Positions 2-14,345 of a stretch of 14,528 nucleotides of DNA are shown one piece after another. The DNA comes from a virus. The stretch lies in the UHGV virus genome UHGV-0197628; one strand, given 5' to 3'. Position numbers and translations under genes: made by a program. Position 1 is the stretch's first letter. Every line of letters starts with the position of its first letter. A model generated the notes under the pieces. It did no database searches. It saw only the letters and a program-made list of their open reading frames with translations, and was not told the origin of the DNA.

Positions 2-946
2 GGTATCACCACGCTTCAGCCGCGCATTAAAAACGGTTCAAAAGTGGAGGTGCTGATTGGTGATGAGCTGGTGATCACCGGCTGGGTGGAGGCTACGCCC
101 GTTCGTTACGATGCCCGGTCGGTCAGCACCGGTATTGCCGGACGCAGTCTAACCGCTGACCTGATTGATTGTGCAGCCGAACCGACACAGTTTAACGGAC
201 GATCACTGGTACAGATTGCGCAGGCGCTTGCTGCGCCCTTCGGCATTGAGGTGGTGAACAGCGGTGCGCCGTCGGGTGTTATTCCTGATGTCCAGCCTGA
301 TCACGGTGAAACGGTGATCGAGGTGATTAACAAAATACTCGGTCAGCAGCAGGCGCTGGCTTATGACGACCCGCACGGCAGGCTGGTGATTGGCGGTATT
401 GGCTCAACGCGGGCACATACCGCGCTGGTACTCGGGGAAAACATCCTTTCCTGCGATACGGAGAAGAGTATCCGGGAGCGGTTTTCTGTTTACCAGGTGG
501 CGGGGCAGCGTGCCGGAAACGACGATGATTTCGGTGAGGCCACCACCACCGCGCTGCGGGCCCGCACAGAGGACGCATTTATTGCCCGTTACCGTCCGAT
601 GTATATCAGGCAGACAGGGCAGGCCACGGGGGCAGGCTGTATTGCGCGTGCTGACTTTGAAGCCCGGCAACGGGCGGCGCGGACGGATGAAACCATCTAT
701 GTGGTGCAGGGCTGGCGACAGGGTAACGGTACGCTGTGGCAGCCCAACCAGCGGGTGATTGTCTTTGATCCGGTCTGTGGTTTCGACAATACCGAACTGC
801 TTGTATCGGAAGTCACGTTTACTCAGGGCCAGAACGGTACCCTGACGGAAATCCGTGTCGGCCCGCCTGATGCTTATCTGCCTGAACCCGAAGATCCCGG
901 CGCGCGGAAAAAGAAAAAAGCCAGAGTACAGGAGGACCCGTTCTGA
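2..946 (+). CDS. Phage baseplate/tail protein, Mu gp44 (P) / late-control-D-like; 5' end lies outside the window
   Basis: Reading frame is open from nt 2 (no in-frame stop before the first Met at 44) to the TGA at 944-946, so the gene starts upstream of the window. Its stop overlaps the next start (TGATG at 944-948), indicating translational coupling. It sits first in a co-oriented gp44-gp45-gp46-gp47-gp48-like series. Family assignment rests on gene order and size, not a search. Confidence 0.55.
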   Translation, partial: GITTLQPRIKNGSKVEVLIGDELVITGWVEATPVRYDARSVSTGIAGRSLTADLIDCAAEPTQFNGRSLVQIAQALAAPFGIEVVNSGAPSGVIPDVQPDHGETVIEVINKILGQQQALAYDDPHGRLVIGGIGSTRAHTALVLGENILSCDTEKSIRERFSVYQVAGQRAGNDDDFGEATTTALRARTEDAFIARYRPMYIRQTGQATGAGCIARADFEARQRAARTDETIYVVQGWRQGNGTLWQPNQRVIVFDPVCGFDNTELLVSEVTFTQGQNGTLTEIRVGPPDAYLPEPEDPGARKKKKARVQEDPF

Positions 947-1494
947 TGAGGGCGATTGAAACCATACAGCGACAACTCCTCGGGCTGATTGGGCGGGCCG
1001 TGGTGAAAAGCATCAGTGCCGCCACGAAATGTCAGACCGTGGATGTGTCCCTGATTGCCGGTGAACCCAAAGCCGGGGTTGAACATCTTGAACCTTACGG
1101 TTTTACCGCAAGGGCAAACAGCGGTGCGGAAGCGGTGGTGTTGTTTCCGGATGGTGACCGTTCTCATGCGGTGGTTGTTACGGTGTCGGACCGGCGTTAC
1201 CGCCTGAAAGGGCTGCAGACGGGTGAGGTGGCTGTCTATGACGATCAGGGGCAGTCCGTGACGCTGACCCGGGAGGGGATCGTGGTGGACGGTGCAGGTA
1301 AAACGATCACGTTTCGCAATGCACCTGAAGCACGTTTTGAAATGGATCTGGAAGTGACCGGACAGGTGAAAGACCTGTGCGACTCCGGCGGCACCACCAT
1401 GTCAGCGATGCGGCTTGCCTATAACGGGCATCGTCACAGAGAGAACGGTCAGGGCAGTAACACCGATAAACCTGATAAAGCGATGGAGGCATGA
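946..1494 (+). CDS. Baseplate spike/assembly protein V-like (Mu gp45-like)
   Basis: 182-aa ORF, ATG at 946 overlapping the upstream stop, and its own stop overlapping the next start (ATGATG at 1491-1496). Size and position match the gpV/gp45 slot of Mu-like tail modules. Confidence 0.65.
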   Translation: MRAIETIQRQLLGLIGRAVVKSISAATKCQTVDVSLIAGEPKAGVEHLEPYGFTARANSGAEAVVLFPDGDRSHAVVVTVSDRRYRLKGLQTGEVAVYDDQGQSVTLTREGIVVDGAGKTITFRNAPEARFEMDLEVTGQVKDLCDSGGTTMSAMRLAYNGHRHRENGQGSNTDKPDKAMEA

Positions 1495-1919
1495 TGGAAC
1501 TGTGGCTGACGGTGAACGGTAAACGCACCTGCGCCAGCGCACCGCTGGATCCGCTGACCCGCGCTGTGGTGATTTCCCTGTTCACCTGGCGGCGGGCGGA
1601 GCCTGATGACTATGCCGACGTCCCAATGGGATGGTGGGGGGATACCTGGCCTGCGGTACAGAATGACCGTTACGGCTCCCGACTGTGGCTGCTTCAGCGC
1701 AGCAAACTGACCAATCAGCTGGTGCAGACGGTAAGGGGATATATCCGCGAATGCCTGCAATGGATGATTGATGACGGCGTGGTGTCCCGTATTGATCTGG
1801 ATATCCGCCGCACCGGGATTAATGAGCTGGGTAACAGTATCATCCTCTGGCGTCGTGATGGACCAGTAGTGATTTCTTTTGATGATCTGTGGAGTGCGAT
1901 AACGCATGGCGGACAGTGA
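1491..1919 (+). CDS. Mu gp46-like baseplate protein (gp25/W-like)
   Basis: 142-aa ORF with 4-nt start/stop overlap to the upstream gene and 14-nt overlap with the downstream gene. Size matches Mu gp46 (~140 aa) and it is in the conserved position. Confidence 0.6.
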   Translation: MMELWLTVNGKRTCASAPLDPLTRAVVISLFTWRRAEPDDYADVPMGWWGDTWPAVQNDRYGSRLWLLQRSKLTNQLVQTVRGYIRECLQWMIDDGVVSRIDLDIRRTGINELGNSIILWRRDGPVVISFDDLWSAITHGGQ

Positions 1920-2964
1920 ATTTCAGCGCCCGACGCTGGCAGAAAATATCAGTATGCTCCGTAACGATTTATTCGCCAGGCTGGACGTCAGCGACACGCT
2001 CCGGCGCATGGATGAAGACGTGCGGGCAAAGGTGTATGCGGCGGCGCTGCATACGGTCTACGGTTACATCGATTATCTGGCAATGAATATGCTGCCTGAC
2101 CTGTGCGATGAGTCCTGGCTGGCGCGACATGCTGCGATGAAACGGTGTCCGCGCAAGGGAGCCACGGTTGCCAGCGGGTATATGCGCTGGGAAGGTGTCA
2201 GCGATGGCCTGAAGGTGACTGCCGGGAGTGTTATTCAGCGCAATGACTTGGTGCAGTACACGACAACTGACGATGCAATCAGCTCCGGTGGTGTCCTGCG
2301 TGTGCCGATCGCCTGCTCAAGTGCAGGTGCGGTTGGTAACGCTGACGACGGTACGGCATTAATCCTGGTCACGCCGGTGAATGGTCTGCCGTCTTCCGGC
2401 GTGGCTGACACCCTGACAGGCGGATTTGATACTGAAGAGCTGGAAACGTGGCGCGCCCGCGTCATTGAGCGGTATTACTGGACGCCGCAGGGCGGGGCTG
2501 ACGGGGACTATGTCGTCTGGGCTAAAGAAGTACCTGGCATTACCCGCGCATGGACATACCGACACTGGATGGGAACGGGGACTGTCGGTGTGATGATTGC
2601 CAGCAGTGACCTGATTAATCCCATTCCGGAAGAATCAACGGAAACGGCAGCAAGACAACATATCGGGCCACTGGCCCCGGTGGCAGGCTCTGATTTGTAT
2701 GTATTCAGGCCGGTGGCACATACGGTGGATTTTCATATCCGCGTGACGCCGGACACACCAGAAATACGGGCTGCCATCACCGCCGAGTTGCGTTCGTTCC
2801 TGCTGCGTGATGGTTATCCGCAGGGAGAACTGAAGGTATCGCGTATCAGTGAGGCGATTTCCGGTGCGAACGGGGAATACAGCCATCAATTGCTTGCACC
2901 GGCGGACAATATCTCCATTGCAAAAAATGAACTGGCGGTTCTGGGGACGATTTCATGGACGTGA
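1906..2964 (+). CDS. Baseplate J-like protein (Mu gp47 / P2 gpJ family)
   Basis: 352-aa ORF in the conserved position between the gp46-like and gp48-like genes, overlapping the downstream gene by 10 nt. Size is typical of baseplate J proteins. Confidence 0.7.
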
Positions 2965-3539
2965 CAAACGATGATTACATCCGTCTGTTGTCGGCACTGC
3001 TGCCGCCCGGTCCGGCGTGGTCAGCCAGCGATCCGGCGATTGCCGGTGCGGCACCGTCATTAACTCGTGTTCATCAGCGTGCGGATGCCCTGATGCGGGA
3101 GCTGGATCCGCGCACCACCACCGAACTGATAAATCGCTGGGAGCGTCTGTGCGGCCTGCCGGATGAATGTATTCCCGCAGGGACACAGACCCTTCGCCAG
3201 CGTCAGCAACGGCTGGATGCGAAGGTTAACCTGGCGGGTGGCATCAACGAGGATTTTTATCTTGCACAGCTTGCTGCCCTGGGCAGACCAGATGCCGCCA
3301 TCACGCGATACGACAAAAGCACGTTCACCTGCTCATCGGCCTGTACTGACGCTGTGAATGCGCCGGAATGGCGGTATTACTGGCAGGTCAACATGCCAGC
3401 CGCCACCAACACCACCTGGATGACATGTGGCGATCCCTGTGATTCCGCACTGCGTATCTGGGGGGACACCGTTGTCGAGTGCGTGCTTAACAAACTCTGC
3501 CCGTCGCATACCTACGTAATTTTTAAATATCCGGAGTAA
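2955..3539 (+). CDS. Mu gp48-like tail protein (P2 gpI-like / YmfQ-like)
   Basis: 194-aa ORF immediately upstream of the tail-fibre gene, with a 3-nt gap to it. Size and position match Mu gp48 and e14 YmfQ. Confidence 0.6.
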
Positions 3540-3542
3540 TCC

Positions 3543-4208
3543 ATGCATCGTATAGACACGAAAACCGCGCAGAAGGATAAGTTCGGCGCGGGTAAGAACG
3601 GTTTTACCCGTGGTAACCCCCAGACCGGCACGCCTGCCACCGATCTGGATGATGACTACTTTGATATGTTGCAGGAAGAACTCTGCAGCGTGGTGGAGGC
3701 ATCCGGTGCCAGTCTGGAGAAGGCGCGGCACGACCAGCTGCTTACCGCGCTTCGTGCGCTGCTGTTAAGCCGCAAGAATCCGTTTGGCGATATCAAATCG
3801 GATGGCACGGTGAAAACGGCTCTCGAAAACCTTGGTTTGGGAGAAGCGGCAAAACGGGATGTGGGTAACGGGCAAAACCAAATTCCTGATATGTCAGCGT
3901 GGGAGTGTGGGGGAGATACAACGACGGGATGGAGGCGAAGCCCGGATGGTTATATTGAACAATGGGGGCTAACTGGGGCCACAACAAATGAAGTTTTGAT
4001 TAATTTTCCTATCCCATTTCCGACAGCCGTCATTTCTATTAATGAACATGACCAGGCTCCTGTGGCAGGGAAAATGTCAGTATGGCAATTCTATAAATTG
4101 ACTAACTCAAATGTCATAGCAGAGAACCTGGGATCTCTTGATAAAGGAAATCCATCCTTCAATGTTCCAACTGTCGCTGGTTGCCGCTGGTTTGCTACAG
4201 GAAGATAA
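3543..4208 (+). CDS. Side tail fibre protein (Stf / Mu S-like); constant N-terminus (to ~nt 3833) fused to the currently expressed variable C-terminus inside the invertible segment
   Basis: 221-aa ORF. The N-terminus ([26 protein letters not shown]...) is, from memory, characteristic of e14 StfP-type fibre proteins. The 26-bp inversion crossover site lies in the ALENLGLGE codons (nt 3820-3845). Sequence downstream of the site is visibly more AT-rich and unrelated to the constant part. Confidence 0.8.
3820..3845. repeat. Left inversion crossover site (gix/pix/hix-like, 26 bp, central TT)
   Basis: ctctcgaaaaccTTggtttgggagaa resembles the Hin/Gin crossover-site pattern (..GAAAACC NN GGTTT..). 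Its reverse complement matches the right site at 5659-5684 over 15 contiguous bp (cttctcccaaaccaa), with partial similarity beyond. Confidence 0.75.
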
Positions 4209-4209
4209 A

Positions 4210-4650
4210 ATGAGTAAATATCTTTACGATGCTAAAACTAATATGTTTTACCCATTTACTCTGGAAAGTCAGTATAAGGAGTCTGGGTTATGGCCTCATA
4301 ATGGAGTTGAAGTTGATGAGGATATATTTATTAAGTACCTGTCCCCACCTCCAGGGAAGGTGAGAGTTGCGGGTGATGATGGCTATCCTGCATGGGATGA
4401 CGTACCGCCGCTAACTCATGAAGAACAACTGTCAGAAGCGGAACGAAAAAAACAGGCACTCATAAATCGAGTTAATGAATATATTAACAGTAAGCAGTGG
4501 CCAGGAAAGGCTGCTATTGGTCGTCTGAAAGGTGAGGAACTGGCGCAATATAATTTATGGCTGGATTATCTGGACGCACTGGAACTGGTCGATACTTCCA
4601 GTGCTCCAGATATTGAATGGCCTACGCCTCCGGCAGTTCAGGCCAGATGA
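4210..4650 (+). CDS. Tail fibre assembly chaperone (Tfa / Mu U-like)
   Basis: ATG at 4210 lies 1 nt after the stf stop (TAA 4206-4208), with an AGGAAG Shine-Dalgarno-like sequence about 8 nt upstream. C-terminus ...GRLKGEELAQYNLWLDYLDALELVDTSSAPDIEWPTPP is the conserved Tfa tail. The longer ORF from 4138 starts inside stf and was not used. Confidence 0.75.
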   Translation: MSKYLYDAKTNMFYPFTLESQYKESGLWPHNGVEVDEDIFIKYLSPPPGKVRVAGDDGYPAWDDVPPLTHEEQLSEAERKKQALINRVNEYINSKQWPGKAAIGRLKGEELAQYNLWLDYLDALELVDTSSAPDIEWPTPPAVQAR

Positions 4651-5215
4651 CATCCGGCGCGGTGCTGGTATCTGTTGCCGCCACCGCGTCAATGTAATCC
4701 AGCACAGCGTTAAGCCGGGTTGTTTCTGCCTGCGTCAGTTTCCGCCCGGCCTGTAATTTCAGCTGAATCAGACTAATGGAAGCCATTGCTGCATCAATCA
4801 GTGACTGGCGCTGTGCTTCTGCCGCTTCTACTGCGGCACCGTGTTGTGCCTCAGTATCTGTCACCCATTTCTCACCATCCCATTTATCATATGGCGTTAA
4901 CGGTGAAAGCGTGACATAACCGTTTTTGATGGCACCGATATAATCCACTGTAACAGCAGCACCATTTTCGATTGAGTAAACAGTCTCATTGCGATGGTCT
5001 TCTTCATGGCACCATCCCTTACCTGTAAATACTGCCACTTTTCCCGGAATGTTTTCGCCCGGGTCAATACCAGTGGAACAGGCGGGCATACTTACGCCAG
5101 TATTAATATATTCATCAGACCAGCCCGTATACTCAGATGTTTCAGCATCATAATAAAAACAACGCATATCGCCCGGCACTGTAGCCAGCCCATTTTCATC
5201 AAAAACAGGTTTCAT
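4622..5215 (-). CDS. Tail fibre assembly chaperone, alternative copy (Tfa' / Mu U'-like)
   Basis: 197-aa minus-strand ORF ending in the same conserved Tfa C-terminal motif (...LDYIDAVAATDTSTAPDVIWPELPEA). It is convergent with tfa, with the 3' ends overlapping by 29 nt, and sits immediately downstream (minus-strand sense) of the alternative fibre cassette. Confidence 0.8.
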   Translation of the reverse strand: MKPVFDENGLATVPGDMRCFYYDAETSEYTGWSDEYINTGVSMPACSTGIDPGENIPGKVAVFTGKGWCHEEDHRNETVYSIENGAAVTVDYIGAIKNGYVTLSPLTPYDKWDGEKWVTDTEAQHGAAVEAAEAQRQSLIDAAMASISLIQLKLQAGRKLTQAETTRLNAVLDYIDAVAATDTSTAPDVIWPELPEA

Positions 5216-5682
5216 TATTTAGCCCTCACCAGAAAGTTAAATGCAATATTTCGCGGTCTGACAGCAACAAAATTCACACCATCACCCACAGAGCTACTGG
5301 TGAAATTAAATCGTGAAAATCCTGGCTGATTTCCGGCGATGCCATCATGAAAGTTAATTGCGTGTCCCGCACCTTCGCCTATATTCCCGGCAAACTGAGA
5401 AAAGTTTGTAGCTTCCTGCCAGCTTAATAATTCGCGACCACCATCTGCACCTCGCCCGTCATCCCAGATACGAATGAAATCACCGCGGGCTTCAGGTAAT
5501 ACCAGCGAAGGAAACACTTTCGCCAGCACAGGGTAATTAGAGGCAGAAAATTTCGCCCCGTTGAACTTCAAAAACACCATACCGGACCAGCTGTCGATTA
5601 CAGTATTTGGCATTGCCGCGGAGGGCCAGAAGAACGGAACGCCAATAGCTGGAGCACCTTCTCCCAAACCAACATTTATGAA
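5215..5682 (-). CDS. Alternative tail-fibre variable C-terminal cassette (S'-like), silent in this orientation
   Basis: Minus-strand frame is open from the right crossover site and encodes ...NVGLGEGAPAIG..., i.e. the same L-G-L-G-E junction residues as the expressed fibre. It has no credible start or RBS of its own; the track's Met at 5712 lies in the pin upstream region. Its stop abuts the tfa' start. Confidence 0.7.
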   Translation of the reverse strand, partial: FINVGLGEGAPAIGVPFFWPSAAMPNTVIDSWSGMVFLKFNGAKFSASNYPVLAKVFPSLVLPEARGDFIRIWDDGRGADGGRELLSWQEATNFSQFAGNIGEGAGHAINFHDGIAGNQPGFSRFNFTSSSVGDGVNFVAVRPRNIAFNFLVRAK

Positions 5683-5684
5683 AA
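5659..5684. repeat. Right inversion crossover site (26 bp, central AA; inverted relative to the left site)
   Basis: ttctcccaaaccAAcatttatgaaaa. The first 14 bp are the exact reverse complement of the inner half of the left site. It lies 55 bp upstream of the invertase start codon, as in Gin/Pin/Hin systems. Confidence 0.7.
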
Positions 5685-5738
5685 TGCAGAAATAACGAGC
5701 AAATGGCATCATTCCTGCTTTTGCTAGGGAGATCTACC

Positions 5739-6293
5739 ATGCTTATTGGCTATGTACGTGTGTCAACAAATGACCAGAACACAGATCTACAACGTAATGC
5801 GCTGAACTGTGCAGGATGCGAGCTGATTTTTGAAGACAAGATAAGCGGTACAAAGTCCGAAAGGCCGGGACTGAAAAAACTGCTCAGGACATTATCGGCA
5901 GGTGACACTCTGGTTGTCTGGAAGCTGGATCGGCTGGGGCGCAGTATGCGGCATCTGGTCATTCTGGTTGAGGAGTTGCGCGAACGTGGCGTTAATTTTC
6001 GCAGCCTGACGGATGCTATTGATACCAGTACCCCAATGGGGCGCTTTTTCTTTCATGTGATGGGGGCCCTGGCTGAAATGGAACGAGAACTGATTGTTGA
6101 ACGAACAAAAGCTGGACTGGAAGCTGCTCGCGCACAGGGACGAATTGGTGGACGTCGTCCCAAACTTACACAAGAACAATGGGCGCAGGCCGGGCGATTA
6201 ATTGCATCAGGCGTTCCTCGCCAGAAGGTGGCGATCATCTATGATGTTGGTATATCGACACTGTATAAGAAGTTTCCGGTCGGAGATAAATGA
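5739..6293 (+). CDS. pin: Serine DNA invertase, Pin/Gin/Hin/Cin family
   Basis: 184-aa product from ATG 5739 (MLIGYVRVSTNDQNTDLQRNALN...). It has the N-terminal catalytic-serine motif (YVRVSTNDQ) and a C-terminal helix-turn-helix region (...GRRPKLT..QKVAIIYDVGISTLYKKF), and is near-identical in character to E. coli PinE as I recall it. The 12 extra N-terminal codons in the ORF track (from 5703) were rejected. Confidence 0.9.
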   Translation: MLIGYVRVSTNDQNTDLQRNALNCAGCELIFEDKISGTKSERPGLKKLLRTLSAGDTLVVWKLDRLGRSMRHLVILVEELRERGVNFRSLTDAIDTSTPMGRFFFHVMGALAEMERELIVERTKAGLEAARAQGRIGGRRPKLTQEQWAQAGRLIASGVPRQKVAIIYDVGISTLYKKFPVGDK

Positions 6294-6334
6294 AACCGTA
6301 GCACGTCGTATGCAAGAAGATCGTGCTGCGGTTT
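6293..6334. terminator. Bidirectional terminator-like hairpin between convergent pin and the GIY-YIG gene (repeat copy A)
   Basis: 13-bp stem (aaaccgtagcacg / cgtgctgcggttt, one G-U pair) with a 16-nt loop. It starts at the last base of the pin stop codon and ends 20 nt beyond the stop of the minus-strand gene. Flanks are moderately T-rich on both strands. Confidence 0.55.
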
Positions 6335-6353
6335 ATGCTTATCACTTAAAGAC

Positions 6354-7223
<870 letters not shown>

Positions 7224-7312
7224 CTAATCCTTTGAATTTACATAGTAAAAAAAGATACTTTTCCTCATAGTGTGAGCTAATTTTATGTTTCGTTTGATGA
7301 TCGGACCGGTCT

Positions 7313-7352
7313 CAAAAACCGCAGGCACGTTGTATGCAAGAACGTGCTGTGG
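7313..7352 (-). terminator. Rho-independent terminator-like hairpin on the minus strand (repeat copy B), downstream of the FRG-motif gene
   Basis: Stem ccgcaggcacg / cgtgctgtgg (about 10 bp with one bulge) and loop ttgtatgcaagaa. On the minus strand it is followed by a UUUUUG run (plus-strand aaaaa at 7314-7318). Stem and loop are closely related to hairpin A (shared gtatgcaagaa loop). Confidence 0.5.
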
Positions 7353-7658
7353 CTGGCTGGTGAACTTCCAATAGTGCGAATATTGAATTATTTCCAGCTG
7401 TTATCGATTTTACGTATTTTTTGCATGAGAGGATTTCCACCACCTCCCACCGACCATCTATGGCTGTACGGCCCTATCTCTAGGGCTGCTATGTGCTAAA
7501 AGCAGACATTGATAACATTGAGATATGTTAATTTATAGGTAGCGGGTCAAGGCCACTGAAGATTCCAGTTTTTGACCCTGAGCCTGAAACCGTCCCCGAT
7601 GAGCAGTTCCACCTGAAGACTGCACAGTCTTAGTTTTCTTTGCCATTAATTTATCCAT

Positions 7659-8993
7659 TTATGATATCGATATATACTTTTTTGCAATTTCCGCTGCCGT
7701 TTTCTCCATGCTGGGATATACAGTGCTTTCGGAGATATTAAGCTGGGCCAGCTCTTTCAGAATTTTATTTTTGTTTGCTATCTCCACTCTGTTAAGAGGA
7801 AAATCAGCATCTGTTTCCGGTAAAATAGGATCAAGTCCGAACAGAAGAAATGCGCCTGCCTGAGACTGTATGCGTTCATTATTTATTTTAGCTTTAAGGA
7901 AAACAACTTTTTTTAAGTCATCAGAGATTATTTTGTTTCTGAAATATGATTTTTCATTCTGTATAAGGTCTGCAAGTTTATCAGTGAGTTCAGATAGCTC
8001 TACAGTATCTTTTCTGACATCAATGGAAGACAATTTTTCCAGCTCTTCGTAAGATAAAACTGATAAGTTTGCTATGCAGCTTACTGTATCTGAATCAAAA
8101 TATTTAATTTTCTTTCTGTTTGTTGAGAACGAAATCACCTGCCCATTTTCATTATGGTTCGAACTGCAAGCAAAATATAATGCTATCAGTGGGTTAGATG
8201 TGATATCCAGGAGTCTCGTAGGTAAGCCATAATGCTGCATGCGGACAAGTTTATCAATCGTAAATTTATCCTCCTTAAATTCATTTGGTCTTGCACTGAG
8301 TATCTCACGTACTAAGTCAGATTCTGAAGCAAGATGCCTGTATGTCCCGTTTTCATTCTTTCTGTAAAGAGAGGGGACAAGCTCATATGAGCTTTTAGAG
8401 TGTCCACGATAAAAGGTAACGAGGCCATCCGGACTGTTTTTTTTAATAAAGGCAAGATAATCCATGACATTCTCAACCACCTGATATGTTTGTTTTTTTA
8501 ATTTGATTGTACCTTTCAGACGGTTGTTTTTCTTGTTTAAACTAAGTCCTTTCAGAACAATATTTAAATCCTTATCTTTTACTGCCCAGTGTGTACGACT
8601 TAACCCGAAAGTTCCTAGTTCTAGGATTTCTTTATATAATGCTGTTTGGGGATTTGTTATTTCTCCAAAATCATGGTTAATCTTGAAGGAAAATAAAATG
8701 TCGTCACCATCTTTACGTAAATTTCTTATTTTCCCAAGCCTGATTCTGATGTACCTGTTTTTATCATTTTCAGTATCTTTCATATAAGTTTCGGTCATGA
8801 ACAACACAGGTAGCATGGCGAGTAATTTTAAGCTATCGGGTCTTACAGGTATTAATTTACTGTAAATATCGCTTGGGGTGCCTTCCAGCATGCGGGACAT
8901 CGAGAAGCTTTCCTCGCCTTCTTTAAGCCCAGGATTCATACACGGCCAGCGGTCAAAAACGTCCGGTTCTCCGGCCATGATTAAGTTAAACAT
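7659..8993 (-). CDS. FRG-motif protein (Abi-like), uncharacterised N-terminal ~170 aa plus central FRG-type domain (candidate defence gene)
   Basis: 444-aa product from ATG 8991-8993, with AGGAG 6 nt upstream on the minus strand; the track's start is the adjacent GTG. Contains F-Y-R-G-H followed by ...RMQHYGLPTRLLDITSNPLIALYFAC, which I recognise as the FRG-domain signature. The gene is AT-rich. Confidence 0.7.
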   Translation of the reverse strand: MFNLIMAGEPDVFDRWPCMNPGLKEGEESFSMSRMLEGTPSDIYSKLIPVRPDSLKLLAMLPVLFMTETYMKDTENDKNRYIRIRLGKIRNLRKDGDDILFSFKINHDFGEITNPQTALYKEILELGTFGLSRTHWAVKDKDLNIVLKGLSLNKKNNRLKGTIKLKKQTYQVVENVMDYLAFIKKNSPDGLVTFYRGHSKSSYELVPSLYRKNENGTYRHLASESDLVREILSARPNEFKEDKFTIDKLVRMQHYGLPTRLLDITSNPLIALYFACSSNHNENGQVISFSTNRKKIKYFDSDTVSCIANLSVLSYEELEKLSSIDVRKDTVELSELTDKLADLIQNEKSYFRNKIISDDLKKVVFLKAKINNERIQSQAGAFLLFGLDPILPETDADFPLNRVEIANKNKILKELAQLNISESTVYPSMEKTAAEIAKKYISIS

Positions 8994-9505
8994 CACAATC
9001 TCCTGAATTTACTCACTAAAGTCAGTGTGTTTTTATTATGTTGCATCATTGTGAATGAGGATGGCATGAGTTGTCCATGCTTGTTTGTCTTTCATAATTC
9101 ACAAAGTACATCAGCTTCTAATGTGTTTACGGTACGACCATGTGGGCGATGTCTTTCCATTCCTGAAAACTTCCTACTCAACCATGATGTATAAGCTGTA
9201 GTATGAAGTTTCTTGCCATCCAGTTAAGTAAATGTCTGCTCCTCGCTCACAACAGACATTCACTACAGTTGTGGCAGAAAGGTATGCATACTGGGTGGGG
9301 AAAGTGTGAAAGAAAGGAAGAATACTGCGCCGTTTGTCGTCGCGTTTATCTTCATTGGCTATGCAAGTCGTAATACAAGGTGGGACAAAACTGAGACACA
9401 TAAGGCCTCACAATGGCTTGCAAGGCTTTACATGTTTTGATGTGGTGGGACGTGTGAGCGCAGTGTTGATGGGGTAATGCTTTGAATTAGAAGCGGATTC
9501 TTATA

Positions 9506-9551
9506 ATTCGTAATGCGAAGGTCGTAGGTTCGACTCCTATTATCGGCACCA
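9506..9551 (+). tRNA. Partial tRNA-Thr(CGU) gene, 3' 46 nt only (anticodon loop to CCA); att-site direct-repeat remnant, not a functional tRNA
   Basis: attcgtaatgcgaaggtcgtaggttcgactcctattatcggcacca matches the 3' portion of enterobacterial tRNA-Thr(CGU) (thrW) as I recall it, including anticodon CGT, T-arm GGTTCGACTCC and the CCA end. The 30 nt upstream do not encode the 5' acceptor/D arm, so the tRNA is truncated. Confidence 0.75.
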
Positions 9552-9663
9552 TCTCAACTTCCTCAAACGTCCGTATTAGTCCTTAAATCTTCTGATTTAT
9601 AAGGTTTTTTCTTCTTTTAAGTCCATGGTAGTCCGTAACCATCCAGTAGAATCCGGTACTGAA

Positions 9664-9714
9664 TGTGTATAGGATTGTGTATATGTTCCTGTTCGGTCTG
9701 GATTCCTATACACA
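9664..9714 (+). promoter_or_regulatory. Perfect 11-bp inverted repeat (tgtgtatagga ...29 bp... tcctatacaca) spanning the integrase translation start
   Basis: The arms at 9664-9674 and 9704-9714 are exact reverse complements. The right arm ends at the A of the preferred int ATG (9714) and the left arm begins inside the alternative upstream ATG (9663). A partial third copy (ttgtgtatatg) lies at 9675-9685. Confidence 0.4.
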
Positions 9715-10901
9715 TGCCTTTAAACGATATGCAGATTCGCCGCGCTAAACCTGAAGCTAAAGCCTATACACTTGGAGATGGGCAAGGGCTGTCTTTGCTT
9801 ATAGAACCTAATGGAAGCAAGAGCTGGCGGTTCCGCTATCGTTTTGCCGGTAAACCAAAAATGATCTCGCTTGGTGTTTATCCAACAATAACACTTGCCG
9901 ATGCGCGTTCCCGTCGTGACGATGCCCGAAAACTGGTCGCGGAAGGAAAAAATCCGAGCGAGGTTAGAAAAGAGCAGAAAATTGCTTTGCAAACGGAGTC
10001 CGAGAGCGCGTTTGAAAAGATAGCCACAGAGTGGCACCAAATGAAGTCTGCTAAATGGTCGGAAGGATATGCCTCAGACATCATGGAAGCGTTTCAGAAC
10101 GATATTTTTCCTTACGTGGGTACAAGACCAATAGGCGAAATCAAACCGCTAGAACTGCTTAACGTGCTACGTAAAATTGAAAGGCGCGGTGCATTAGAAA
10201 AAATGCGCAAAGTTCGGCAGCGATGTTCAGAGGTTTTTCGCTACGCCATTGCTACAGGAAGGGCTGAGTTTAACCCAGCAGCGGATCTTTCTAGTGCCCT
10301 CGATGTACACCAATCAAATCACTTCCCGTTCCTAAAAGCTGATGAGATACCCGATTTTCTGCGCGCTTTGGATGGTTACACCGGAAGTCGGCTTGTCCTG
10401 ATTGCTACGAAATTACTGATGATTACTGGTGTAAGAACCATCGAATTACGTGCGGCATTATGGTCAGAATTTGATCTAGATAACGCTATTTGGGAAATTC
10501 CAGCAGAAAGGATGAAAATGCGTAGGGCACACCTTGTGCCACTATCTACTCAAGCGTTAGATTTACTCAGCGAAATCAAAATAATGACAGGGAACTATAG
10601 TTATGTTTTTCCGGGACGGAATGATCCGAACAAGCCGATGAGTGAAGCAAGTGTCAATCAGGTAATCAAACGCATTGGTTATAAAAGTAGGGTCACTGGG
10701 CATGGTTTTAGGCACATGATGTCAACTATCTTACATGAGCATGGGTTTGATTCCCGGTGGATAGAGTTACAGCTGGCTCATGTTGATAAAAATACCATTC
10801 GAGGTACTTATAATCATGCGGTCTATCGTCACGAGAGAGCTACTATGATGCAGTATTTTGCTGATTTGCTATTAGGAAAGTCTCATGACAATAATCAATG
10901 A
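9714..10901 (+). CDS. int: Tyrosine site-specific integrase, P4 / CP4-57 family
   Basis: 395-aa product (MPLNDMQIRRAKPEAKAYTLGDGQGLSLLIEPNGSKSWRFRYRF...). It has the N-terminal arm-binding region typical of P4-type integrases and C-terminal catalytic residues in context (...HLVPLS..., HGFRHMMSTILHEHG, LAHVD...RGTYNHAVY). It sits directly downstream of a tRNA 3' fragment. Confidence 0.9.
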   Translation: MPLNDMQIRRAKPEAKAYTLGDGQGLSLLIEPNGSKSWRFRYRFAGKPKMISLGVYPTITLADARSRRDDARKLVAEGKNPSEVRKEQKIALQTESESAFEKIATEWHQMKSAKWSEGYASDIMEAFQNDIFPYVGTRPIGEIKPLELLNVLRKIERRGALEKMRKVRQRCSEVFRYAIATGRAEFNPAADLSSALDVHQSNHFPFLKADEIPDFLRALDGYTGSRLVLIATKLLMITGVRTIELRAALWSEFDLDNAIWEIPAERMKMRRAHLVPLSTQALDLLSEIKIMTGNYSYVFPGRNDPNKPMSEASVNQVIKRIGYKSRVTGHGFRHMMSTILHEHGFDSRWIELQLAHVDKNTIRGTYNHAVYRHERATMMQYFADLLLGKSHDNNQ

Positions 10902-11811
10902 GGTGAATAAATTTGTATCTGTCAACAAGCAAGATTTTGATGCTTGTATTGATGTTGTTGAGCATTTCTTTTGTATCAAATCGCTCTGTGCAGAGGTACG
11001 ATTTCATCATTTGAAGTTTGATGGTAATGGACGACCTATGGTGAAGGCGTTAGCTGAAAAACTTTACGAGTATATAATCGAGTACTGTTTTTCGATGCAA
11101 GATAGATGTGAACCTCTCTCATCTCAACAATGGCTTGCCTTAGCGAAACAGGCTCGTTCATTGTTTAGGCATCCCAAAGTCACAGACGATTCGCCTGATA
11201 AAACAGGCGAGGCTGGCGAAACTTTATTATTTTTCCTTTTGGAAGCTATAATTGGTGCTCCACAGTTAGTGGCAAAAATGGAGCTTAAAACCAACTCGAA
11301 TGATGAGGTAAAAGGTTCTGACGGCATACATATAAAATGGAATGAAACGGATAAAGTTGTTGATTTCTACTTTGGTGAGTCAAAGCTCTATCAGAAAATA
11401 TCCTCTGCAATGGACTCAGCACTTAAAAGTATCGATGATTTCCATACTAATGAAATGTATAAGCATGAGTTTGGTATGGCAACAAAACATTATAAATACG
11501 CTAAGGATGAAGTCAGGGACGCTGTAAGGAAACTATTCGTTTCTGGAGAACCCGGTTCTGATGTTCGTGTTAATCATGCGTGTTTAATTGGTTTTGACTG
11601 GAATGGTTTTGACAAGTTAGATTATGGATCTTCGATTTCTATAAATGAGCAGTTTATTACAGAGTTGACTAACACACTTCCGCAATGGATTGGTCTGTTA
11701 GATGAAAAATTCAGTAGGTTTAACCGTAAATATTTAAGGTTTGATGTTTTCTTTATTCCATTTCCTTCGGTAGTCGATTTTAGAAATGAATTTAACAAGG
11801 CATTAAATTAA
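10885..11811 (+). CDS. PD-(D/E)xK-like nuclease candidate; HamA-like (Hachiman effector) by architecture
   Basis: 308-aa ORF with AGGAAAG 5 nt upstream of its ATG, overlapping the int 3' end by 17 nt. Candidate catalytic triad spacing: E120 (FLLEAIIG), D146 (GSDGIHI), E165-x-K167 (FYFGESKLY). It is followed 2 nt later by a large SF2 helicase gene. Strongly AT-rich. DUF1837 membership could not be verified without an HMM search. Confidence 0.6.
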   Translation: MTIINEVNKFVSVNKQDFDACIDVVEHFFCIKSLCAEVRFHHLKFDGNGRPMVKALAEKLYEYIIEYCFSMQDRCEPLSSQQWLALAKQARSLFRHPKVTDDSPDKTGEAGETLLFFLLEAIIGAPQLVAKMELKTNSNDEVKGSDGIHIKWNETDKVVDFYFGESKLYQKISSAMDSALKSIDDFHTNEMYKHEFGMATKHYKYAKDEVRDAVRKLFVSGEPGSDVRVNHACLIGFDWNGFDKLDYGSSISINEQFITELTNTLPQWIGLLDEKFSRFNRKYLRFDVFFIPFPSVVDFRNEFNKALN

Positions 11812-11813
11812 CT

Positions 11814-14345
11814 ATGTTAAAGATAAATGAGTTGTACTCTAAACTTGTCAAGGTTAGCATTGATAACATATTTGGAGTGGTAGGGGAGTTAAAGGTAAGT
11901 ATTAGTGATATTTATAAGTTATTATCATATGGCTCCATACTGTCTTTGTCAGAGAATGAATCTGACATAAAAAAAGCCTACGACATTGTCAGTAGAGTTT
12001 TAGAATTAGATACTCAGTACGATTCGAACATAATTGCAGCTTGTGATCTTATTTTATCTAGAATCGGAAATTTTCCAGGTAGAGGGTTGCTAAGAGATAA
12101 ATATAATAATGGAGAGTCTCCTTCGCTGAATTTATCACTTTCGCTAGAACGTATTGGGCGTGAAACAGAAAATACATACAATGATATAACTTTGACAAAC
12201 TTCCAATGCAAGTTGCTTAATTCGCTAAGAAAGAATAATTATCTCAGTGTGTCCGCCCCAACGTCTGCTGGAAAATCTTTTGTTCTTTCATTAGCTGTTA
12301 TTGATAAAATTCAAGCTTATGAAAAAGAATGCATTGTTTATGTAGTACCAACTCGTGCGTTAATTAGTGAGGTGTCAAATAAATTTCGTTATGAGTGTAA
12401 ACAAGCAGGGTTAAATAAAGTTATTATAAGAACTGCACCAGAAATAATAGAGAGTAATAGTATAGAACAAGGCTTAATTTATGTGCTCACACAAGAAAGG
12501 CTTGTTAGTTTACTCTCGAATTCTTATGGGAATAGCAATTTCCATATAGATACATTACTCATAGATGAAGCCCATGAAATCCAAAAAGGAAAAAGAGGTA
12601 TAATTCTTCAAAATGCTGTTGAATTAGCTCTTGAAAAACATCCTCATATGCATGTTATGTTTTCCAGCCCTTTGATAAGTAATCCTGATTATTTTTTTTC
12701 AATTTTTAGATGGCGCAAGGATGGTAAGTCATTTATTGAAACTATATCACCTGTTACACAGAATGTTTTACTTGTTAATCAAGTGAAAAATAACACTCAA
12801 GCTATTAACGTAAAGTTAAACAATGAAGATAAACCCATTGATCTTGGGAATTATAATTTAGATTTTGTGTTGCGGGGCAATCGTAAGGTTCAGAAAGCAA
12901 AAATTGCTGAGTTTATATCTCGCTCCGGTGGTGCTGTAATTGTATTTGAAGATACACCGTCTAATGCAGAAGGTGTTGCTATCAATATAGCGGAAAGTAT
13001 TGGTGATACATCTTTACAAGATGATTACGAAGAGTTTGTGTCTTCGATTGAAGAAGAAATGCATGAGCAATATACTTTGATCACATGCTTACGGTCAGGA
13101 GTGGCTTTTCATTATGGGAATATGCCATCTATAATAAGAAATGGGATTGAGTACTTCTTTAAACGTGGCGATATTAAGTTTATAGTTTGTACTAGTACAT
13201 TACTTCAGGGTGTTAACTTACCTGCAAAGCATCTTATTTTAGAGAATCCACACAGTGGTGATGAACCAATGTCAAGGGCTGATTTCTTGAACCTTGCTGG
13301 TAGAGCTGGCCGTTTGAAATATGAGTTTCATGGCAATGTTTGGTGTGTGAGAAGTAATCTTTGGGATAACAAGTCCTTTGAAGGTGATACTCTCCAAACT
13401 ATAACTTCCGCGATGTCAAAAGTTATGGAAGATGGCGGTAGCATCATTTCAAATGCTATTGATAATGTATTTTCCCCAACTGATGACAAGGAATTGGCAG
13501 ACGTTGCATTCGCGCGTTTTTATCAAGAAGTGCAAAGAGATGGTTTTCAATTATCATACTTCTCTGAGTTAGAGGGGGAGGAGTCCAATGAAATGTTGGA
13601 ATATAATTATGATAAAGTTCGACGAATGAAGATAACCATCCCTGAAGAACTGTTGAAATTGAACTCAGGCACGAGACCTGATTACATACAACGACTTTAT
13701 GAATTCTTCACCCAACAGGATGATTTAGATGATTACATTCTGCATAGCCCTTATCAACAAGGAGGGAAAGCAAGAGTAGACCGCGCCATCGAGATTATTA
13801 TTGATATATTCGCTTGGCCGGTTACATTGCAATATGCAAAGTTAATTAGTGTTATGGCTCATCATTGGATGACCTCTCACTCCCTTAAATCCATGATTAA
13901 CTATAAGATTAGAAGTTCTCATGAACTATCAGATATGATTAATCGTGGTGAATCAATTGGTAAAATAAGAAGAAAAACATCCTCTCTTATTAGGGATGTG
14001 CTAAATACACTTGAGAATCAAGTTAGGTATAATTTAGTTCGATATTTAAAAGTATATAGAGAAACTCTTGTCTATGTTCTTATTTCAAAAGGAGAAAAAG
14101 GTAAGGCTGAGAAGGTCGAGAATATTAGTGCCTATCTAGAGTTTGGTTCCTGTAATCCAACTGAATTAAGCCTTATGTCATTAGGCCTTTCTCGAAGTAC
14201 TGCTTTATTTTTAAAAAATAAATTTAATTTCCCGCGGGATTCCTCCCCTGAAGCGTTGATTGAATTTTTATTAACGAAAGATTTGAATTCTAAAAACACA
14301 CCAGAATTTAGAGTTAGAGAAATTAAAGATGTACTTGGAATTTAA
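11814..14345 (+). CDS. Superfamily-2 DEAH-box helicase with ~340-aa uncharacterised C-terminal region; HamB-like (Hachiman helicase) by architecture
   Basis: 843-aa ORF. Walker A is SAPTSAGKS (K154, nt ~12255-12278), motif II is LLIDEAHE (nt ~12561-12575), motif V-like is TSTLLQGVNLP and motif VI is LAGRAGRL (aa ~493-500). The start is 2 nt after the upstream stop. Strongly AT-rich. Confidence 0.7.
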   Translation: MLKINELYSKLVKVSIDNIFGVVGELKVSISDIYKLLSYGSILSLSENESDIKKAYDIVSRVLELDTQYDSNIIAACDLILSRIGNFPGRGLLRDKYNNGESPSLNLSLSLERIGRETENTYNDITLTNFQCKLLNSLRKNNYLSVSAPTSAGKSFVLSLAVIDKIQAYEKECIVYVVPTRALISEVSNKFRYECKQAGLNKVIIRTAPEIIESNSIEQGLIYVLTQERLVSLLSNSYGNSNFHIDTLLIDEAHEIQKGKRGIILQNAVELALEKHPHMHVMFSSPLISNPDYFFSIFRWRKDGKSFIETISPVTQNVLLVNQVKNNTQAINVKLNNEDKPIDLGNYNLDFVLRGNRKVQKAKIAEFISRSGGAVIVFEDTPSNAEGVAINIAESIGDTSLQDDYEEFVSSIEEEMHEQYTLITCLRSGVAFHYGNMPSIIRNGIEYFFKRGDIKFIVCTSTLLQGVNLPAKHLILENPHSGDEPMSRADFLNLAGRAGRLKYEFHGNVWCVRSNLWDNKSFEGDTLQTITSAMSKVMEDGGSIISNAIDNVFSPTDDKELADVAFARFYQEVQRDGFQLSYFSELEGEESNEMLEYNYDKVRRMKITIPEELLKLNSGTRPDYIQRLYEFFTQQDDLDDYILHSPYQQGGKARVDRAIEIIIDIFAWPVTLQYAKLISVMAHHWMTSHSLKSMINYKIRSSHELSDMINRGESIGKIRRKTSSLIRDVLNTLENQVRYNLVRYLKVYRETLVYVLISKGEKGKAEKVENISAYLEFGSCNPTELSLMSLGLSRSTALFLKNKFNFPRDSSPEALIEFLLTKDLNSKNTPEFRVREIKDVLGI

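Follow-up and report, generated by a model that had tools for sequence, protein, structure and literature searches.

The 14,528-nt stretch of the virus genome UHGV-0197628 analyzed here (hereafter "the window") carries, between a short tail-fibre gene and a gene for a serine DNA invertase, a segment bounded by two inverted 26-bp sites. This is very probably a Pin/pix invertible tail-fibre segment, i.e. the same system as the P segment of e14 in Escherichia coli K-12 and closely related to the Mu G segment with its invertase Gin and to the P1 C segment with Cin. A mechanism of the Gin/Mu and Pin/e14 type had been put forward in a first-pass annotation, and it is now supported by the pix sites, the reading frames, the two cassettes, a PinE-like invertase and a gene order shared with Mu; the switch as a whole looks intact. 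The system is already known and not new: hundreds of E. coli genomes carry annotations of it. The e14 P segment system was reportedly described by Plasterk and van de Putte in 1985, the Mu and P1 systems are said to have been described earlier, and the K-12 cryptic prophage e14 was reportedly treated later by Mehta, Casjens and Krishnaswamy (2004).

Comparison of the two sites reveals the architecture typical of the Din family, namely two inverted 26-bp sites, each with imperfectly symmetric 12-bp half-sites flanking a 2-bp core. The left site reads CTCTCGAAAACC TT GGTTTGGGAGAA and the right site TTCTCCCAAACC AA CATTTATGAAAA, the reverse complement of the latter being TTTTCATAAATG TT GGTTTGGGAGAA, so that the core dinucleotide is equal in both when they are read in inverted orientation (TT at 3832-3833, AA at 5671-5672). 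In this reading 20 of the 26 positions are complementary; because the inner half-sites and the core agree throughout (14/14) and the outer half-sites at only 6/12 positions, the pair is an imperfect, not a perfect, inverted repeat. A repeat search recovers it as 20-nt arms, 90% complementary, with 1,811 nt in between. Exact copies of the 14-mer TTCTCCCAAACCAA occur in the window only in these two sites, and only 0.12 matches with up to two mismatches are expected there by chance. Both sites also match the family consensus TTCNNNNAAACNNANGTTTNNNNGAA on either strand with 1-3 mismatches (1 and 2 mismatches at the 16 specified positions), and none of 200 shuffles reached the observed number of matches. 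In the published table of Din-family sites (PMC3241671), with which the window sites align along with gix, hix and cix, pixL is given as TTCTCCCAAACC AA GGTTTTCGAGAG and pixR as TTCTCCCAAACC AA CGTTTATGAAAA. The left site is identical to pixL (26/26), and the right site differs from pixR by a single G to A change, CGTTT to CATTT (25/26). The 26-bp inverted sites noticed earlier are thereby confirmed at their positions, with the correction that the right one is one base off pixR.

Analysis of the reading frames reveals how the segment is built into the fibre gene. On the plus strand the core occupies positions 2-3 of the codon CTT (Leu97, 3831-3833), which is followed by G-L-G-E; on the minus strand it occupies (5672-5671) positions 2-3 of the Val codon GTT (5673-5671), followed by GLGEGAPAIGVPFFW. 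GLGE follows the crossover codon both in the open reading frame (ORF) 3543-4208 and in the minus-strand ORF 5215-5712. With the core dinucleotide at the second and third codon positions of both strands, a complete fibre is encoded in either orientation: an in-silico flip of 3832-5672 gives an open fibre of 248 amino acids (aa), in which residues 1-97 are joined in frame to a new C-terminus ending ...NLGLGEGAPAIGVPFFW...VRAK, and natural fused fibres of 248 aa are annotated in relatives. The earlier claim of a frame-preserving fusion after residue 97 is thus borne out. In a trivial reading, the repeat is a by-product of two opposed homologous fibre genes that share an LGLGE coding motif, with no recombination site at all: the inner half-site does encode GLGE, and a very similar sequence stands at the same joint of the non-invertible fibre of the lambdoid phage mEp043. 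We give this reading practically no credence, as the outer half-sites, which lie outside the common coding sequence, fit the consensus too, the sites equal the experimentally defined pix sites, an invertase gene adjoins, and natural inversions end precisely at the sites (see below).

The segment contains two convergent units, each composed of a cassette and a Caudo_TAP chaperone gene recognized with Pfam. The stop codon of each cassette abuts or overlaps the start codon of its own chaperone gene (in cassette B as TAATG), so the structure needed for the swap of co-expressed chaperones, which had also been proposed, is present. By homology the two tips resemble different fibre tips, cassette A being gp53-like and cassette B lambdoid Stf-like. 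The 3' ends of the chaperone genes share 29 nt (4622-4650), and this overlap is flanked by a 23-nt imperfect inverted repeat (4560-4582/4681-4703), which probably reflects the common C-terminal domain of the chaperones rather than a terminator. The features of the window are collected in Table 1.

Table 1. Features of the proposed invertible segment, followed by those of the neighbouring regions (window coordinates)
Feature	Position	Strand	Basis or detail
Left recombination site	3820-3845	.	pixL 26/26; crossover dinucleotide 3832-3833
Right recombination site	5659-5684	.	pixR 25/26, CATTT for CGTTT; crossover dinucleotide 5671-5672
Constant N-terminal fibre part, residues 1-97, outside the invertible segment	3543-3833	+	translation; SfV-type and StfP identity
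Cassette A, expressed fibre C-terminus, Gp53-like_C domain	3834-4208	+	Pfam PF21882, E 6e-12
Whole expressed fibre, 221 aa	3543-4208	+	translation
Tail-fibre assembly chaperone for cassette A, 146 aa	4210-4650	+	Pfam Caudo_TAP, E 1e-34
Tail-fibre assembly chaperone for cassette B, 197 aa	4622-5215	-	Pfam Caudo_TAP, E 7e-27
Cassette B, silent alternative fibre C-terminus	5215-5670	-	part of ORF 5215-5712
pin, serine DNA invertase, 184 aa, Ser9	5739-6293	+	Pfam Resolvase E 9e-52 and HTH_7 E 3e-13
Putative recombinational enhancer, inside the pin coding region	5757-5828	.	positional homology to P1 cin enhancer
Mu gpP/gp44-like hub protein, cut by the window edge	44-946	+	Pfam
Gp45	946-1494	+	Pfam
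GP46	1491-1919	+	Pfam
Baseplate_J	1906-2964	+	Pfam
Gp48/YmfQ	2955-3539	+	Pfam
PD-T4-3 (GIY-YIG)	6354-7178	-	E 3e-140
FRG-domain protein, matches candidate system PDC-S15	7659-8996	-	
P4-type tyrosine integrase	9663-10901		
HamA of complete Hachiman pair	10885-11811		
HamB of complete Hachiman pair	11814-14345		

That such segments invert in nature is evident from a search of 5,426 complete E. coli genomes with the in-silico flipped left junction and with the junction of the window: the former is found at full length, with approximately 96-98% identity, in 72 complete genomes, and the latter in seven. Two isogenic pairs are particularly clear. Over 8,400 bp the chicken isolates GPEC1209 and GPEC1210 differ only in an exact 1,811-bp inversion between the sites, and over 10,900 bp the only difference between strains S1-JOR-02-A and MSB1_6C is an exact inversion of 1,803 bp. 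Both members of the second pair carry the exact left and right sites of the window, the A variant included, and an intact pinE whose product is identical to the window Pin at 179/184 positions. Inversion is therefore documented at the level of the family and also for a site pair identical to that of the window; within the family genomes of either orientation occur, isogenic pairs included, rather than the single orientation that the first-pass annotation had named as evidence against a switch. Published work on e14 points the same way: both orientations of its segment occur together in MG1655-derived cultures (PMC4272514), overproduction of PinE increases the inverted fraction, a pinE mutant is locked, and PinQ and PinR are reported to act on the segment in trans (PMC12529663). 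In GPEC1209 and GPEC1210 themselves pinE is a truncated pseudogene of 79 codons (6107-6343 in loci L002 and L003), and their inversion was therefore due either to another genomic invertase acting in trans or to an event predating the truncation.

The invertase adjoining the right site was said earlier to be intact, and nothing in its sequence departs from this: Pin is full length, possesses Ser9 and is identical to K-12 PinE at 174 of 184 positions (95%). It matches the Gin structure 3UJ3 over residues 1-181 (E 5e-94), with Ser9 aligned to the position of the Gin catalytic nucleophile (S9A in 3UJ3). In Hin, McLean et al. tied Gln151, Arg154 and Leu155, together with a basic helix B, to activation by Fis and the enhancer (PMC3798978). 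When the Pin residues are mapped onto Hin numbering, the equivalents appear to be conserved, since Q-A-G-R-L is kept in helix 1 of the DNA-binding domain and K46, K47 and R50 are kept in RPGLKKLLRTL, as in Gin. To judge from its sequence, Pin thus has the features of a Din invertase, i.e. an N-terminal catalytic domain with the Ser nucleophile, a C-terminal helix-turn-helix and the predicted Fis/enhancer-contact residues.

A candidate for the enhancer, which the first-pass annotation had suggested looking for in the 5' part of pin, is found there by homology to the cin enhancer. The latter is annotated in the GenBank record of P1 at nt 19-90 of cin (72 bp), and an ungapped alignment covers the first 130 nt of pin, K-12 pinE, gin and cin. 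The corresponding stretch of the window is identical at 70/72 positions to K-12 pinE, at 55/72 to cin and at 54/72 to gin. It contains two Fis-like 15-mers (5761-5775 and 5809-5823), in the same columns in all four genes, which match a degenerate motif occurring at chance level; their centres lie 48 bp apart, and the nearer one is approximately 96 bp from the right crossover. The enhancers of Hin, Gin and Cin have Fis sites spaced by 48 bp.

Several observations weigh against a working switch. The G to A change of the right site falls on a position specified by the family consensus (the G of -GTTT-). The degenerate Fis consensus KNNYRNNWNNYRNNM has 113 matches in the window, which is the chance level, and three pairs of matches at 48 bp; we rejected it as independent evidence for this reason, and the putative enhancer is proposed from positional homology only. 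A simple scan found no promoter-like site upstream of pin; in a promoter and terminator scan of 3300-6500 nothing rose above the shuffled expectation, which is uninformative on the expression of pin or of the cassettes. The evidence for inversion comes from relatives with family or identical sites, and the window is a single sequence. Finally, the close relative TUM10008 holds a tail-module remnant only, and the left end of the prophage lies outside the window.

Together with the truncated pinE pseudogenes seen in relatives, the right-site change and the lack of a promoter-like site could be taken to mean that the architecture was inherited and the switch has stopped here, because of the altered site or of an unexpressed pin. 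We regard this as quite unlikely. The isogenic pair with the exact variant site shows a clean inversion, and the exact inversions of both pairs contradict this reading as well as that of a repeat generated by the coding motif. The exact 90 bp around the variant right site were found in eight complete E. coli genomes, among which the feature beside pinE is annotated as "phage tail protein" in five and as "gp53-like" in three, which indicates that both orientations exist among them. The G is likewise missing from hixR (PMC3241671), and the natural pin-side outer half-sites are diverse (CGTTTAAG, CCTTTCAA, CGTTTTTA) in loci known in both orientations. Taken together, these observations argue that the change is not disabling. 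Besides, Pin is full length with Ser9 in place, and other invertases are able to act in trans (PMC12529663 and the GPEC pair). For the source strain of the window we infer current switching.

By analogy with the Hin/Gin paradigm, a Pin/pix switch would operate as follows. Codons 1-97 of the fibre gene, outside the segment, would always be transcribed together with the baseplate operon, and the receptor-binding C-terminus and its chaperone would be drawn from the two convergent copies inside the segment. Pin dimers would bind both 26-bp sites, which would be brought into synapsis with a Fis-bound enhancer located within the first 90 bp of pin; Pin would then cut both sites at the central TT/AA via Ser9, rotate by 180 degrees and religate. 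The predicted output is either the 221-aa fibre with a gp53-like tip or the 248-aa fibre with a lambdoid Stf-like tip, each followed by its own chaperone. Inversion is presumably dependent on Fis, and it would be expected to affect adsorption.

Among the known inversion systems the window is closest to e14. In addition to the sites (left 26/26, right 25/26) and Pin (174/184), YmfQ is identical at 190/194 positions, 98 of the first 100 fibre residues match StfP, and the gene order ymfQ, stfP, tfaP, tfaE, stfE, pinE is the same. The differences concern mainly the cassettes: cassette A hardly resembles the StfP C-terminus, the silent cassette is identical to StfE at 86/165 positions, and the chaperones are identical to TfaP at 65/146 and to TfaE at 125/197. 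The segment is 1837 bp long versus 1825 bp in K-12, the baseplate J gene is intact in the window and a pseudogene in K-12, and the cargo consists of PD-T4-3, the FRG-domain protein and Hachiman, where K-12 has mcrA. We therefore rejected the reading of the segment as a plain K-12 P segment, its cassettes being other alleles; the 95% matches labelled "DH5alpha" are not the K-12 P segment either, as they fall in a P2-like prophage.

With Mu the window shares the gene order (gp47, gp48, S(c+v), U, U', S'v, gin), the invertase (Gin matches Pin with E 5e-94), 26-bp sites of the same consensus and, as far as the putative enhancer of pin is concerned, the enhancer position at the 5' end of the invertase gene, but the core dinucleotide is GA in Mu and AA in the window, the Mu fibre has about 500 aa with the crossover near codon 170 (versus 221 or 248 aa and codon 97), and the Mu cassettes are unrelated in sequence. 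P1 has sites and an invertase of the same family, and its 72-bp cin enhancer aligns to 5757-5828 ungapped (55/72), but its cin is at the opposite end with respect to the constant portion of S, cixL and the end of cin overlap, and the segment measures 4.2 kb. Segments of P2-like E. coli prophages are about 95% identical in nucleotide sequence over 3821-6196 of the window, i.e. from the left site through most of pin, with a 100% identical chaperone, the same inner half-sites and both orientations seen; they differ in the constant part, which is a long P2 H-type fibre (products of 427-502 aa), in the fibre-side outer half-site (GGTATGCGAGAA) and in the location of the invertase between the fibre module and the sheath gene. 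The Salmonella H/Hin/hix system uses a recombinase of the same family and 26-bp sites whose core is AA, and its enhancer lies in the 5' part of the coding region, at a distance of about 100 bp from the closest site (about 96 bp for the putative enhancer of the window), but Hin inverts a promoter for flagellin genes, whereas in the window a coding joint of a fibre gene would be flipped. The Min/mix system of plasmid p15B has related sites (TTCCCCCAAACC AA ...) and tail-fibre cassettes; it differs in possessing six sites with many permutations, as opposed to two sites only.

Homology searches place the individual parts as follows. Over residues 1-103 the fibre shares 98% identity with the short tail fibre of the viable Shigella phages SfV, SfI and SfIV and 97% with that of SfII. 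Cassette B is 92-97% identical to the side-tail-fibre tips of mEp043, mEp213, vB_EcoM-683R1 and 500465-2, and this similarity begins at residue 93-94, which corresponds to the crossover; the tips of both cassettes have homologues among the fibre tips of viable phages. The 146-aa chaperone has 100% identical copies in three tail contexts, in both orientations (loci L012-L021): P2-like, SfV/Mu-like and a third type with Collar, Phage_Wedge1 and Sheath_initiator (L014). It is always accompanied by a partner cassette and in most of these loci by a Pin-like invertase. In one locus (L019) an insertion sequence (IS) element takes the place of the fibre gene. The inner half-site is constant across the tail contexts, whereas the fibre-side outer half-site varies by tail type. 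This pattern corresponds to a modular exchange of fibre tips that has long been known, here together with the invertase, and the sequence comparisons show one cassette-plus-invertase module common to P2-like and SfV/Mu-like tails. The side tail fibre of mEp043, which is not invertible, contains a single pix-like sequence, TTCTCCCAAACCAAGGTTTGTGCGAG (L011, ~4001-4030, minus-strand coordinate 4442), located at the GLGE joint where the homology to cassette B starts; it is possible that it served as a docking point for cassette exchange. In the whole-window search the share of the window present at a single location did not exceed 56% in any E. coli genome, and the element is a mosaic.

Upstream of the fibre the window carries Mu/SfV-type baseplate genes (44-3539), of which those visible are intact, and the lengths of the baseplate and fibre ORFs equal those of annotated relatives. 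The tail module may be functional or recently functional, as the first-pass annotation suggested. In strain 14EC007 the same layout occurs inside a prophage that looks complete, with genes for lysis, terminase, portal, capsid, sheath, tube and tape measure. No tRNA gene that would mark an attachment site was found in the window. Directly after pin follows a run of defence genes (6354-14345), in the place where K-12 e14 has mcrA.

A different view of what the switch is for holds that the prophage is cryptic and that its host retains the segment as a phase-variable device against phages. In K-12, inversion of the e14 segment reportedly produces StfE2, composed of the short StfE leader and the StfP C-terminus, which blocks adsorption of T2 (Kirigo et al. 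2025, PMC12529663). The window has an equivalent minus-strand ORF: cassette B is part of an ORF (5215-5712) that possesses its own ATG pair and a 14-codon leader (5712-5671; MMPFARYFCIFINV, compared with MPFACYFFIFINV in K-12), divergent from pin and starting 27 bp from the pin start codon. After inversion it would give a product of about 138 aa whose C-terminus is gp53-like, and a 137-aa protein is annotated in GPEC1210. PD-T4-3, the PDC-S15 candidate and Hachiman lie directly after pin, and the relative TUM10008 has a tail-module remnant. On the other hand, the cassettes are only about 30-50% identical to K-12 StfP/StfE, and the T2 result is therefore not transferable; the ribosome-binding context of the leader looks poor, with AGGA directly abutting the first ATG; the defence claim for K-12 comes from one laboratory; a relative of the same layout looks complete as a prophage; and the cassette tips of the window are present in viable phages. 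We consider a domesticated function unlikely, although less so than a switch that has stopped; it is compatible with inversion by Pin, since the mechanism would be the same and only the selected function would differ. An extended version, in which an StfE2-like product of the leader ORF and the downstream defence island form one unit, and the related proposal that the cassettes and pin travel between tail types as a portable module docking at GLGE/pix, are likewise unlikely.

The value of identifying a Pin/pix segment in the window is mainly practical, for annotation, and it carries little weight as a discovery. This prophage has a fibre of two forms (221 and 248 aa); the fragment beside pin called "phage tail protein" is a silent cassette and not a pseudogene; and two assemblies of one strain may legitimately disagree in the orientation of this segment. 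In many RefSeq E. coli genomes the 248-aa inverted fibre is labelled "integrase" (e.g. L002 and L004, 3911-4657; WP_264117929.1, WP_483548057.1). No recombinase domain was seen in the equivalent product, and the label looks like a propagated annotation error.

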